Part shown: one piece after another, positions 59,805-63,452 of the stretch
Layout of the letters: every line of letters begins with the position of its first letter
Numbering within the stretch: the first letter of the stretch is position 1
Assembly (NCBI GenBank): GCA_029246085.1
Contig: JAQWOB010000003.1
Coordinates: 7,608 to 71,607 of the forward strand
DNA: 64,000 nt
Source: Gammaproteobacteria bacterium
GTDB taxonomy: Bacteria > Pseudomonadota > Gammaproteobacteria > GCA-002705445 > GCA-002716945
Direction: 5' to 3'
Position numbers and translations under genes: made by a program
Notes under the pieces: generated by a model
Databases searched by the model: none
What the model was told of the DNA's origin: nothing
Seen by the model: only the letters and a program-made list of their open reading frames with translations

Positions 59805-60020
59805 TATCTCTACTAGCTCTTTCATACGGAGGTGTATATGAGTATATTAACATATAATAATATAAACTCAATACAAATTTTACCCACGAAATCTCACATA
59901 CTCAAAATATATCAATCATATAATTAGTCCTTAATGAGAGACATTCTTAAAATAGAGAGCATGACCTATTTACCTTAATAGATAGCAAAAGTTTAACAAT
60001 TGGCACGGTATATGCATTGT

Positions 60021-60052
60021 TATATATAAAAAGAAAATCCTTTTTATATATA
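60021..60052. repeat. Perfect 13-bp inverted repeat with a 6-nt spacer (TATATATAAAAAG-aaaatc-CTTTTTATATATA) in a long ORF-free region.
   Basis: Read directly from the sequence. The 376-nt convergent intergenic region around it (59805-60180) has no ORF of 60 aa or more on either strand. Confidence 0.5.
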
Positions 60053-60180
60053 TGATGGTTAAAACTAGGTCAAACTCCTCAAAGTTATCTCTCCCCGAGG
60101 ATCTGGTTTTAGCTTCATCCTTAACTAGTAAGAATTAATTATAATTAAACAAAGTACTTATGTTTAGATGATTTAAAAAT

Positions 60181-60954
60181 TTATGGATTCATAGAAGTTA
60201 TTTTTTTATGAATACCTGTCCATAAATCATATCGGATCTCTATGCTCTTAATTGCCGCATCCAAAGCTTGATTGTATTTTAAATCATTATTTTCATATGA
60301 CTTTTCAAACAGTATTAATGATAATGGCCCATGCCTATTTGAATCTATATCAATATGTCTTTTTAAATAAAGTTTCAGGGAATCATATTTTGAAGACAGG
60401 CCAATTTTTGCTAATAGTTGCTCAAACATTCCAGGAAGAGTTGTTTCTCTACCATATGTGAATAATGCAGATATAATATGGAGCTCATTTGTATTCAGTA
60501 ATTTGTTATTTTCATTTAAAAAATTAAAACATTCAGGCTCTAGATCGTATTTATCAAAGCCCTTTAGTTTATTTCTTGAAGTATCATTTATTATAGACTC
60601 AATTATATCTGTTTTTGCATTAATATTTTTCATGCTAGATAGATATAAATCAAAATGTGACATAAAAATGCCATCTGAAATTTCATCTGATTCTTCAGCC
60701 ATAACTATTTCATTTATTAATCTTGTTATTCCATTTTTAGAAAAACTATTTGGATACCAAGGTGTTGATGATGGACAAATTATACTCTGTAATTTTTTTA
60801 CAATGCACATAAAATCCCAGACCGCAAAGACATGAAACTCCATGAATATCTTTAAATGATCTTCTGTAAATACATAACTCTTAGAGAGTAATGGATGATT
60901 ATTCAACGTATCTATTTTTTTTTTGAGTATAAGTTCCTTCTTCATTATTTTCAC
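60181..60954 (-). CDS. DUF3050 family protein (predicted haem-oxygenase-like fold).
   Basis: 257 aa. N-terminal HVFAVWDFMCIVKKLQ and INEIVMAEESDE segments match my recollection of the DUF3050 consensus. Several spaced His/Glu/Asp residues are present. Confidence 0.65.
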   Translation of the reverse strand: MKIMKKELILKKKIDTLNNHPLLSKSYVFTEDHLKIFMEFHVFAVWDFMCIVKKLQSIICPSSTPWYPNSFSKNGITRLINEIVMAEESDEISDGIFMSHFDLYLSSMKNINAKTDIIESIINDTSRNKLKGFDKYDLEPECFNFLNENNKLLNTNELHIISALFTYGRETTLPGMFEQLLAKIGLSSKYDSLKLYLKRHIDIDSNRHGPLSLILFEKSYENNDLKYNQALDAAIKSIEIRYDLWTGIHKKITSMNP

Positions 60955-61025
60955 ATCATTCCTTTGAGTTAGATTATTACTAGATGTTAAATATATTATA
61001 TTATTTAGTATTTTTAAATATCAGT

Positions 61026-61060
61026 CACTGGCAAGAAAATACTTAATCTTCTTGCCAGTG
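61026..61060. terminator. 12-bp perfect hairpin (CACTGGCAAGAA-11 nt-TTCTTGCCAGTG), between the TonB-dependent receptor stop and the DUF3050 start. Possible terminator or attenuator.
   Basis: Read directly from the sequence. On the transcribed (minus) strand it is followed by an A/T-rich tract rather than a clean U-run. Confidence 0.4.
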
Positions 61061-61070
61061 GCCTTATATG

Positions 61071-63032
61071 TTAGAAGTTATATCTCATGGATACATCAAT
61101 CCCATAATTTGCTCCTTGAACGGGAACATGATCTTTGATCAGAGATGAATGGTTTCTAATAGTTTTATTTAGAATATTATTCCCATAAAGATTGAATACT
61201 AAATCTTTATTAGAATCATAAGTAATCTTTTTAGAATATCCTATATCTAAATCAAGGTGTGAATTTGTCTTAGTCTCAATAGAAGACATATCACCTTGAG
61301 ATTCTGTATATATAAGATTTGCGTAATAAGTATCACTTTTATTATTTTCATACTTTAGAGATAAAGTATTTTTAGCAGGGCTTAATCGAGGTATATATGT
61401 ATTATCATCAAATACACCCGAAATATCGTCTCTACTCAATGTTACTAATAGGTCACCATTTCCTATCATGTATGAGCTAGACATTGATATTTCATAGCCT
61501 TGCATAACTGCACTTTTTTGACTCCAAGTTGCATCAGTCTTGCCACTAGTAGTCGTAGACTCATCTTTCAAGTAAATAAAATTATTAATATTATTTCGAT
61601 ATAAGTTCAAGTTCATATCTATATCATTAAAATTATATTCTAAATTTAATTCAATATTTCTTGATACTTCTCTTGAAATTCTATTATTCCCACGTTCATA
61701 TCTTGAAGTAGCTCCATGCACGCCGTTTGCAAACAGTTCAGCTACAGATGGACTTCTAGATATATGGGCATAATTCATATTATACATGAATGATTCTCCA
61801 AGATTAGCAGCAAAACTTGTACCAAAGCTCAAGGATGTATCTCCATATCTTTGGTTATCACTATCTCTGGAATTAGATTCATATCTACCAGCAAAATCTA
61901 TTTCATATGGTCTATTTTTAGTCCTTATGAAATAAGATATTGATCTTTCATATGCCTCTGATGATGGCAGATAAGCGCCTGTCATCGGAGATTTAGTATG
62001 ACCATACTGAAGGAGAAATCTTTTTTCATATAACTCATCATCTAAATTAAAATTGAAATCAAATGATGTTCTATTGCTGTCTAAAGATGCAGATCCATCC
62101 TCTTCATGCTCTTTTAAAAAAGAGTTTGAATTTCTAAAAGAATAGTCAATAGAATTAAAAAGTGGAACTGTATTAAATTTACCTTTTAAAGTATATGTTT
62201 CAGTTTCAGTTTTTGTAAATAACCTATGTTCTTCCTCTTCTTCATGATGCCCCTCTTCTTCTTCTTCAGCATGATATGGAAGACCATAAACGCCATCCGT
62301 ATTCTCAAAAGAGAAGCCAAAGTATCCCCACTCTCTTGGAAAAGATAGACCAAAACTAGTGTTTTGATTTTTATGGTCTGAGTTAGCAAGTGTGCTTAGC
62401 TCTAACCCTGTATCCTCGCTCAAAAGAGAGCCATTGGGTATATTATAGTTATCCATATGTTTGTTATTAATAGAAAAGAATATATTTGCATTTAAGTAGT
62501 TTTTCTTAAATAAAAAATTATGTCCATATCCATTATTAACTGTTGTGTAATCAAGCTTTATGACTTCATTGTCATATTTATTTTCGCTTATGATGTCTGT
62601 GATGACATTAATAATGCCGCCACTAGTTCCACCACGATTAAATATTGACGAAGGTCCTCTTAATATTTCTATATGTGAAATATTATTCAAATCAATATTA
62701 TTTATATGATCCCCGCTCAAATTACTGAGATCATTTATAGGTATATTATTTGAAAGCAATCTTGTTCGATTGCCAGTTAAACCTCTTATTACAGGCTGCC
62801 CAACAGCTGCACCATAATCTGCATTTGATAATCCGGATAATCCTTTGAGGTTATCCCCGATACTTCTGTTAACATTTATCTCTTCATTTTGCATGATATG
62901 CAGCGGATATTTACTCTCACTAATTGAGTTAGTAAATTCAGATGATGTAACACTGATATCACTCAGTTCTTCAGCTGATACTACATTAATGCATACAAAT
63001 AATAGAGAAACTATGAAAATGTTTTTAAACAT
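61071..63032 (-). CDS. TonB-dependent outer-membrane receptor with a His/Glu-rich loop (ZnuD-like candidate metal receptor).
   Basis: 653 aa. Signal peptide (MFKNIFIVSLLFVCINVVSA|EE), plug-domain motif (ILRGPSSIFNRGGTSGGIINVIT) and a C-terminal aromatic terminus (MRYNF). Internal motif HAEEEEEGHHEEEEEH. Good RBS (AAAGGAGACACAAATG). Confidence 0.9.
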   Translation of the reverse strand: MFKNIFIVSLLFVCINVVSAEELSDISVTSSEFTNSISESKYPLHIMQNEEINVNRSIGDNLKGLSGLSNADYGAAVGQPVIRGLTGNRTRLLSNNIPINDLSNLSGDHINNIDLNNISHIEILRGPSSIFNRGGTSGGIINVITDIISENKYDNEVIKLDYTTVNNGYGHNFLFKKNYLNANIFFSINNKHMDNYNIPNGSLLSEDTGLELSTLANSDHKNQNTSFGLSFPREWGYFGFSFENTDGVYGLPYHAEEEEEGHHEEEEEHRLFTKTETETYTLKGKFNTVPLFNSIDYSFRNSNSFLKEHEEDGSASLDSNRTSFDFNFNLDDELYEKRFLLQYGHTKSPMTGAYLPSSEAYERSISYFIRTKNRPYEIDFAGRYESNSRDSDNQRYGDTSLSFGTSFAANLGESFMYNMNYAHISRSPSVAELFANGVHGATSRYERGNNRISREVSRNIELNLEYNFNDIDMNLNLYRNNINNFIYLKDESTTTSGKTDATWSQKSAVMQGYEISMSSSYMIGNGDLLVTLSRDDISGVFDDNTYIPRLSPAKNTLSLKYENNKSDTYYANLIYTESQGDMSSIETKTNSHLDLDIGYSKKITYDSNKDLVFNLYGNNILNKTIRNHSSLIKDHVPVQGANYGIDVSMRYNF

Positions 63033-63072
63033 TTGTGTCTCCTTTATAAATTAATTTAAATTAAATTGAATT

Positions 63073-63360
63073 CTATAAAAGAGGCGGTGCCCTAGAACTA
63101 AATGGAGATTTTTGATTGTTACTTATTAAAAAAGGTTGTAAGTATGATGCAATGAGCAAAATACCAAGAATTTGTAAAATTAAATTTGAGCCTATGATAG
63201 GAAGAGCAGAATTGGAGCTCAAATGACATGTTATACACTGATGACTCTCTTCATTCTCATGCTCATCAAAATGTAAGTGAAACTCACTTATCATCTGTGA
63301 TGAAATAAACAAAGCTAAGACAATTTTAACAATTAATTTTACAGATTTATTTTTTGTCAT
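63073..63360 (-). CDS. Small His/Cys-containing membrane protein upstream of the TonB-dependent receptor (DUF2946-like metal-binding candidate).
   Basis: 95 aa with an N-terminal TM/signal, the motif EFHLHFDEHENEESHQCITCH, and a second hydrophobic segment. The family assignment is an inference from motif and position. Confidence 0.5.
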   Translation of the reverse strand: MTKNKSVKLIVKIVLALFISSQMISEFHLHFDEHENEESHQCITCHLSSNSALPIIGSNLILQILGILLIASYLQPFLISNNQKSPFSSRAPPLL

Positions 63361-63378
63361 ATATTTGTCTATTTAAAA

Positions 63379-63452
63379 TGGGCCCGGGAGGACTCGAACC
63401 TCCGACCAATGGATTATGAGTCCACTGCTCTAACCAACTGAGCTACAGGCCC
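63379..63452 (-). tRNA. tRNA with anticodon CAU. This is either elongator tRNA-Met or lysidine-modified tRNA-Ile2; the variable loop resembles E. coli ileX.
   Basis: Reverse-complement gives GGGCCTG-TA-GCTC-AGTTGGTTA-GAGC-A-GTGGA-CTCATAA-TCCAT-TGGTC-GGAGG-TTCGAGT-CCTCC-CGGGCCC-A, which folds into a canonical 74-nt cloverleaf. CCA is not encoded. Confidence 0.9.

Follow-up and report, generated by a model that had tools for sequence, protein, structure and literature searches.

The question raised by this locus is whether the DUF3050 protein encoded in the window (the whole 64-kb stretch of DNA that was analysed) is a metal-dependent enzyme with a haem-oxygenase-like fold, and whether it works together with the outer-membrane receptor encoded beside it. 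Sequence comparisons and a structural model suggest that the gene probably encodes a stand-alone enzyme of the PF11251 (HamA/PvfA) family within the haem-oxygenase-like non-haem-iron oxidases/oxygenases (HDOs), and that it forms an independent cargo cassette of ~1 kb next to an unrelated receptor module.

The interval 60181-60954 of the window is occupied by an uninterrupted open reading frame of 257 codons on the minus strand (GTG start at 60954), and the plus-strand frame of the same interval contains many stops. Four peptides that had been quoted for this protein (HVFAVWDFM, EIVMAEESDEISDGIFMSHFDLYL, FTYGRETTLPGMFEQLL and KRHIDIDSNRHG) are all present in the minus-strand translation. Its nearest relatives, at 83-96% identity, have a uniform length of 254 amino acids and the N-terminus MKKELIL, which makes the ATG at 60945 a more probable start than the GTG at 60954; the coding sequence is accordingly placed at 60181..60945 on the minus strand (254 amino acids, or 257 from the alternative GTG), and residues are numbered from the ATG. 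The protein had been correctly assigned to DUF3050: it matches the PF11251 profile over its full length (positions 1-233 of 233, E = 5.8e-63, 213.1 bits compared to a gathering cutoff of 22.2). The current Pfam name of this family, HamA_HO-like, already appears in Pfam annotations of public contigs. No NCBIfam model matches the protein. Because homologues number 940 at E<1e-5 in a word-indexed search, and 3,195 representatives of 50%-identity clusters at E<=1e-3 in an exhaustive profile search, the open reading frame is real, far beyond chance. One homologue has been labelled 'heme oxygenase' by NCBI. The sole sequence or profile match in the PDB is 9VWB (E = 2e-41 with the single sequence, 1.9e-84 with the family profile), which is HamA of the Burkholderia cenocepacia fragin/valdiazen cluster (PMC12522199). 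The sequence-profile search of the PDB gave HamA alone, and the link to CADD, the p-aminobenzoate (pABA) synthase CT610 of Chlamydia trachomatis, required hhalign and Foldseek.

The haem-oxygenase-like helical bundle, on which the original prediction had been staked beforehand, is present in the predicted structure: an AlphaFold2 model built from an 86-sequence alignment (pLDDT 92.6, pTM 0.90) consists of an all-helical bundle of this type plus one short beta-hairpin. The top Foldseek match of the model in the PDB is HamA (9VWB, TM 0.84/0.86, rmsd 2.4 A, E = 7.7e-13), and the bundle is confidently predicted to be nearly superimposable on the HamA crystal structure. The matches ranked below HamA are all haem-oxygenase-like: CADD, a TenA-like protein, FlcD, UndA, PolF, HrmI, BesC, PqqC and HmuO. 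The presence of TenA-like proteins and HmuO in this list, together with the NCBI name of the one homologue, could be taken to indicate a member of the fold that uses no metal or that handles haem, either a TenA-type thiaminase or salvage enzyme or a true haem oxygenase. Such a function is extremely unlikely, however, as these matches are distant (TM 0.5-0.6, ~10% identity, versus TM 0.85 for HamA), the invariant residues of the family are those of the HDO metal-ligand set, and HamA binds Fe directly, without haem (PMC12522199). By sequence and predicted fold, the DUF3050 protein is a member of PF11251, one branch of the HDO superfamily.

Conservation of the putative active site was assessed in an alignment of 167 family sequences, comprising the window protein, HamA, 85 metagenomic homologues and 80 open reading frames of GTDB genomes, the last including pvf-type genes of Pseudomonas and Pandoraea. 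Six candidate metal ligands, all encoded on the minus strand, are invariant in 167/167 sequences: E84 (codon 60696-60694), H97 (60657-60655), E167 (60447-60445), H197 (60357-60355), D201 (60345-60343) and H205 (60333-60331). The conserved set of three histidines and three carboxylates that had been anticipated from the spacing of such residues in the protein is thus found, aligned to the ligands of CADD and HamA. E84, H97 and H197 align with E84, H96 and H199 of HamA, which coordinate Fe in the crystal. The fourth HamA ligand given in PMC12522199, 'Glu184', is an isoleucine in the deposited sequence, and the intended fourth Fe ligand is likely to be the invariant Glu168 of the HamA YGRE motif, which aligns with E167. 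The residues proposed to bind 2-oxoglutarate (2OG) in HamA, H40, R167 and R240, correspond to H38 (codon 60834-60832), R166 (60450-60448) and R238 (60234-60232, all minus strand) of the window protein; the first two are found in 167/167 sequences and R238 in 166/167.

Alignment of the family profile by hhalign with CADD (the sequence used being identical to 1RCW_A at 231/231 positions) places H97, E167, H197, D201 and H205 onto H88, E142, H174, D178 and H181, respectively. This alignment is marginal (E = 3.7e-4, probability 36%) and begins after E84, so that it is supportive, not strong alone. The motif on helix alpha3 is H-x3-D-x3-H, one residue longer than the canonical HDO motif H-x3-D-x2-H, and the canonical i+7 position on this helix is occupied by arginine in the window protein and by glutamate in HamA. 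Judged by these alignments, E84, H97, E167 and H197 are the counterparts of the observed Fe site of HamA, HDO subsite 1, and D201 and H205 are the equivalents of HDO subsite 2. Given an active site without variation and the conservation of the Arg/His pocket, the protein is putatively an O2-activating non-haem-iron oxidase/oxygenase, in which Fe(II) would be bound at the carboxylate/histidine site and O2 would then be activated. The working cofactor would be either one Fe with 2OG, the state reported for HamA, or a labile Fe2 cluster of the kind found in UndA and SznF.

The choice between these two cofactors is roughly even, with a slight lean to the published monoiron/2OG state. In PMC12522199, on HamA, the only family member yet characterised, the crystal contains one Fe, the 360-nm band of a diferric centre is absent, 2OG is bound with a Kd of 208 uM, and activity on HamD-tethered N-hydroxyvaline is 2OG-dependent and abolished in the R240A variant; FlcD is another enzyme of the HDO fold that has been reported as mononuclear. 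The departure of the alpha3 motif from the canonical spacing also speaks against a dinuclear centre. Nevertheless, a true dinuclear HDO (Fe2 or Fe/Mn) that uses both subsites, the single Fe of HamA reflecting the lability of subsite 2, is a serious contender, if somewhat short of an even chance. No variation is seen at any of the six canonical ligand positions, D201 and H205 of subsite 2 included, and five of them align, albeit marginally, with the diiron ligands of CADD; a diiron centre had been predicted by modelling in 2015 (PMC4520260); and ICP-MS of HamA gave 1.5 Fe per protein (PMC12522199). Loss of site 2 in HamA was ascribed by its authors to Glu206 in place of the canonical histidine (PMC12522199), but the E206 position varies in the family (E in 102, R in 28, H in 14, D in 12 and Q in 5 of the 167 sequences; Arg204 in the window protein), whereas the adjacent H207 of HamA (H205) and the nearby Asp203 (D201) are invariant. 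There is also a precedent in UndA, which was first considered monoiron from a crystal with one Fe and later shown to be dinuclear, low occupancy of subsite 2 being general in HDOs (PMC7848743). The invariance of D201 and H205, combined with the variability of the E206 equivalent, is a concrete and testable reason to revisit the nuclearity of the family: its cofactor could be dinuclear, and the published mononuclear/2OG assignment of HamA would then need revision.

The second part of the question concerns the surroundings of the DUF3050 gene; apart from the convergent HisPhos gene, the features placed below are on the minus strand. As had been noted, the DUF3050 gene follows a TonB-dependent receptor gene, which is on the same strand: the receptor (61071..63032) comprises a Plug domain and a beta-barrel, with a ZnuD-like N-terminal part and a HAEEEEEGHHEEEEEH loop, and its top NCBIfam match, which scores far below the cutoff, is to the N-terminal portion of ZnuD. 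Directly upstream of the receptor gene is a small open reading frame encoding a His/Cys-rich protein of 95 amino acids (63073..63360), the sole constant companion of the receptor family, found upstream in all relatives examined. It is preceded by a tRNA-Met gene (CAT anticodon, 63379..63452), the conserved upstream boundary of a variable hotspot. Because the conserved flanks stop at the tRNA-Met gene (63379) and ~60-75 nt past the stop codon of the convergent HisPhos gene (about 59865-59880), the window has a variable island of ~3.5 kb downstream of tRNA-Met, which on comparison with relatives is made up of two independent modules, DUF3050 and receptor. The island is free of compositional deviation (GC content is 28-33% throughout), no att-like copy of the tRNA 3' end turned up, and when repeats, direct or inverted, were sought at the edges of the cassette and the island, only AT-rich chance matches resulted.

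Within this island, the DUF3050 gene would be carried by a ~1-kb cargo cassette (59987..61001) consisting of a promoter-like site, the coding sequence and ~190 nt of 3' flank. The promoter-like site (CTGATA-18-TATAAT, 60995..61024, 10/12 matches, a consensus match only) is upstream of the DUF3050 gene, and the block of DNA homology common to two loci elsewhere, L001 and L006, begins at its -10 element (61001). Cassette positions 61001-59987 are 89% identical in DNA sequence to L001, and the portion 61001-60187 is 84% identical to L006. The flanking genes in both are unrelated to those of the window (DUF2721/GcpE/GrpE-DnaK in L001; radical SAM/SPASM, GSDH, PntAB and BCD in L006), and those of L006 suggest no theme. 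Ten nucleotides past the receptor stop codon is a hairpin (61026..61060, 15-bp stem, -24.5 kcal/mol, z = -6.7) with a weak U-rich tail behind it, and by fold prediction transcription of the receptor gene probably terminates here. A perfect AT-rich hairpin ~130 nt past the DUF3050 stop codon (60021..60052, 13-bp stem, -10.9 kcal/mol, z = -3.3), contained in the 377-nt non-coding spacer between the DUF3050 gene and the HisPhos gene, is a possible terminator. The most probable arrangement is a monocistronic DUF3050 gene that has a promoter-like site to itself; promoter and terminator are consensus and fold predictions, and some read-through of the receptor transcript may occur.

Functional coupling of the enzyme to the receptor, which had been put forward as an undescribed pairing, finds little in its favour when related genomes are compared. 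The DUF3050 protein might, for example, make or process a metallophore or nutrient that the receptor imports: only 125 nt lie between the genes, which share a strand; the His/Glu-rich loop of the ZnuD-like receptor suggests metal uptake; the product of the HamA pathway, the metallophore fragin, is a diazeniumdiolate that binds metal (PMC5878181); and four contigs preserve the arrangement. These contigs, however, are ~99.9% identical and belong to the same population, to which the adjacency is confined. Homologues of the receptor and of the small open reading frame are both absent from all 85 related DUF3050 loci. In two syntenic relatives (L002 and L005), tRNA-Met is directly followed by DUF3050 in the order rpoD-msrA-tRNA-Met-DUF3050, then convergent HisPhos-tatCBA-his, and the receptor is absent. 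Conversely, receptor orthologues (76-77% identity) are found in the same hotspot of L086-L089 without DUF3050, accompanied by a glycerophosphotransferase and/or a sulfatase-like gene, and a more distant receptor homologue (48% identity) is located at another locus in L090/L091, also without DUF3050. Within the window, the terminator-like hairpin and the separate promoter-like site stand between the two genes; the NRPS, the N-oxygenase and the other biosynthetic partners are absent; and no Fur or Zur box was found in the whole window with E. coli-type consensus sequences at up to three mismatches, a search that divergent boxes would escape. Neither conserved co-occurrence nor co-transcription across relatives, as expected of a receptor-coupled system, was found. 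An apparent presence/absence polymorphism of DUF3050 in another contig of the same population (L092) was rejected, since a scaffold gap of 100 N accounts for what looked like a 546-nt deletion.

Because of this synteny, the separate receptor orthologues, the 85 DUF3050 loci, the hairpin and promoter-like site between the genes, and the occurrence of the cassette elsewhere, the receptor is not regarded as a functional partner. Coupling, which is largely refuted by these comparative data, is most improbable; the DUF3050 gene is most likely functionally independent of the ZnuD-like receptor module, and the adjacency is a by-product of a variable genomic hotspot.

The genes upstream of the hotspot would fit a role in oxidative stress tied to msrA and ahpC, resembling that of the HDO-like DtpC of Acinetobacter. 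In the syntenic relatives the DUF3050 gene comes after rpoD-msrA-tRNA-Met and shares their strand, a gene for an AhpC-type peroxiredoxin lies just upstream of rpoD, and DtpC, which is co-transcribed with the catalase KatE, protects against H2O2 (PMC13232832). Such a role is nonetheless very unlikely. The nearest homologues (84-88% identity) are located away from msrA, a tRNA gene separates msrA from DUF3050 (to which the window adds a 2.3-kb cassette), and no such neighbour recurs across 80 loci. DtpC, moreover, is not reported as a member of PF11251. For the same reason DtpC of A. baumannii was rejected as an example of a stand-alone DUF3050 protein: it is HDO-like, yet nothing ties it to PF11251 (PMC13232832).

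The independent, stand-alone character of the gene in the window is common among its relatives. Clustering of the neighbours at 80 genome loci identified no conserved partner, as no neighbour family is present at more than 9/80; the recurring ones (map, SAM methyltransferase, M28 peptidase, LysE and acyl-CoA dehydrogenase) represent lineage-specific synteny of Flavobacteriaceae, and DUF3050 loci have lineage-specific housekeeping genes around them. Pseudomonas and Pandoraea loci carry an NRPS and a diiron N-oxygenase beside the family gene, and 72/80 of the nearest genome loci have no NRPS. An orthologue of HamA/PvfA would be encoded together with the NRPS HamD/PvfC and with HamC/PvfB, which is not the arrangement in the window: tblastn with PvfB, PvfC and other proteins of the pvf locus gave no match in the 64 kb. 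Thus, most PF11251 proteins near the one studied here are orphan stand-alone enzymes lacking the NRPS machinery that defines the role of HamA.

Because the NRPS and the PvfB/HamC partner are absent, the candidate substrate is not carrier-protein-tethered (HamD-tethered) valine. The enzyme may instead oxidise a small metabolite that bears an amine or a carboxylate; hydroxylation at N or C is the most plausible reaction, and the candidate substrate would probably be a free amino acid or a derivative. Free-amino-acid chemistry in non-NRPS members is faintly hinted at by a fusion protein of the family (P0250) that joins DUF3050 to a HalD-type free-amino-acid halogenase domain; the other fusion partners are heterogeneous (DUF420, DUF4202 and a receiver domain), and some are possibly gene-calling artefacts. 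A more far-reaching proposal is that the stand-alone clade consists of self-sufficient, NRPS-free diiron HDOs that N-oxygenate a free amino acid, and that in this population the product is used with the ZnuD-like receptor for metal acquisition. If true, the product of the clade would be a hydroxylamine, nitroso or diazeniumdiolate-type metal ligand or signal, but the proposal has very little chance of being correct.

The fold and ligand reading of DUF3050 is not new. The family was placed in the haem-oxygenase clan (Pfam CL0230) in 2015, when a modelling study also predicted a CADD-like diiron site made up of the same six residues (PMC4520260), and the structure of one member, HamA (9VWB), was solved by crystallography in 2025 (PMC12522199). 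What had originally been predicted from the window therefore holds for the fold and the conserved ligand set, stands at roughly even odds for the dimetal state, and fails for the receptor coupling. As it stands, the finding carries little weight, since the fold and metal site are published and the receptor pairing is a by-product of the hotspot.

Among known systems, the closest to the window protein are HamA and PvfA, the latter from the pvf clusters of Pseudomonas, which belong to the same Pfam family over their full length, at ~32-35% identity and with a predicted-fold TM of ~0.85. HamA and the window protein have identical Fe ligands (E84, H96/97, H199/197 and E168/167) and identical proposed 2OG/carboxylate residues (H40/38, R167/166 and R240/238), and in both a beta-hairpin is inserted between the first Glu ligand and the first His ligand; they differ in that E206 of HamA is Arg204 in the window protein. 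Unlike HamA and PvfA, the window protein has no accompanying NRPS (HamD/PvfC), N-oxygenase (HamC/PvfB), cupin or HamE/PvfD, and unlike HamA it is encoded by a probably monocistronic cassette in a streamlined marine gammaproteobacterial MAG of 28-33% GC. The hydroxylamine intermediates are reported not to require hamA (PMC11659414).

The diiron enzymes UndA, SznF, BesC, HrmI and PolF and the mononuclear FlcD share the predicted superfamily fold of the window protein and carry their ligands at corresponding places on core helices 1-3, the alpha3 motif of the window protein being one residue longer; they represent O2-activating non-haem-iron chemistry and are known for a labile second metal site. 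They are only 8-16% identical to it (TM 0.55-0.67), belong to other families (mostly PF14518-like) and act on other substrates. To our knowledge, none of them binds 2OG.

CADD (PDB 1RCW, 8VAG) is ~12% identical to the window protein, which differs from it by a hairpin insertion of ~6 residues between the first Glu and His. The region of the sacrificial Tyr27 of CADD is unaligned; its position is Leu20 in the window protein according to a manual comparison of H-x-x-Y segments, not a tool result, and nothing points to pABA synthesis by the window protein. The two proteins nevertheless share the haem-oxygenase-like bundle (TM 0.62-0.77) and five of the six dimetal ligands in alignment, Tyr170 of CADD corresponds to the invariant Y193, and CADD, like the window protein, is a stand-alone enzyme encoded outside any biosynthetic cluster.

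The DUF3050 gene and the TonB-dependent receptor gene are located in a variable genomic hotspot (59865-63378) between tRNA-Met (63379-63452) and a convergent HisPhos gene, the cargo of which differs among relatives: DUF3050 alone, the receptor with a glycerophosphotransferase, or the receptor with a sulfatase-like gene and small ORFs. Neither an integrase nor repeats at the borders of this interval could be identified, and its GC content is unremarkable. The housekeeping proteins from the flanks of two syntenic loci that encode DUF3050 without the receptor (L002 and L005) are 60-87% identical to those of the window, and their DUF3050 copies are only 49-52% identical to that of the window despite the synteny; copies with 84-88% identity are found at non-syntenic loci (L001 and L006). 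Because DUF3050 is closer at the non-syntenic loci than at the syntenic ones, sequence comparison suggests that the cassette was replaced or transferred within the lineage. Approximately 190 nt of the non-coding stretch at 59805-60180, where DUF3050 and HisPhos converge, moves with the cassette. This spacer (377 nt in the window versus approximately 70 nt in L002) is unusually long for an otherwise compact genome, contains an AT hairpin with a perfect 13-bp stem (60021-60052), and had no match in an Rfam search.

The receptor (61071-63032, minus strand) possesses an acidic/His-rich stretch, HAEEEEEGHHEEEEEH, at residues ~255-270, and its top NCBIfam match is ZnuD, over the N-terminal ~270 residues only and far below the cutoff; together these sequence features suggest a metal-cation receptor of undefined specificity. 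Neither a Fur box nor a Zur box was detected in the window (E. coli-type consensus, up to 3 mismatches). In every relative examined, a His/Cys-rich ORF of 76-100 amino acids is directly 5' of the gene of this ZnuD-like receptor family (63073-63360, minus strand, in the window; 6721-6963 in L086 and 6664-6960 in L087, two loci at the same hotspot without DUF3050; 6742-6972 in L090, a receptor homolog elsewhere). Toward its C terminus the product of the small ORF has a conserved F-x-SR-x-PPL motif, in addition to HLHFDEHENEESHQCITCH and a hydrophobic segment; it has no match in Pfam or NCBIfam and may be an uncharacterized partner with an accessory or regulatory role for the receptor. The gap between tRNA-Met and the cassette of small ORF and receptor is just 18 nt (63361-63378), and therefore the cassette may have to be expressed by read-through from msrA/tRNA transcription or from a promoter within the tRNA gene.

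Among predicted gene models of the DUF3050 family (PF11251), candidate fusions (P0243, P0250, P0258 and P0266) join it to DUF420 (membrane), a HalD-type halogenase, a response-regulator receiver domain and DUF4202, and another (P0241) has two DUF3050 in tandem. The published account of HamA (PMC12522199), the crystallized family member, is inconsistent with regard to Glu184, Fe stoichiometry and Glu206. The deposited sequence (PDB 9VWB) has Ile at the position of the ligand given as 'Glu184', the intended residue probably being Glu168; the Fe:protein ratio of 1.5:1 is called consistent with one Fe; and Glu206, which the paper takes to stand in place of the site-2 His, occupies a position that varies across the family in a 167-sequence alignment, in which the neighboring His207 is invariant.
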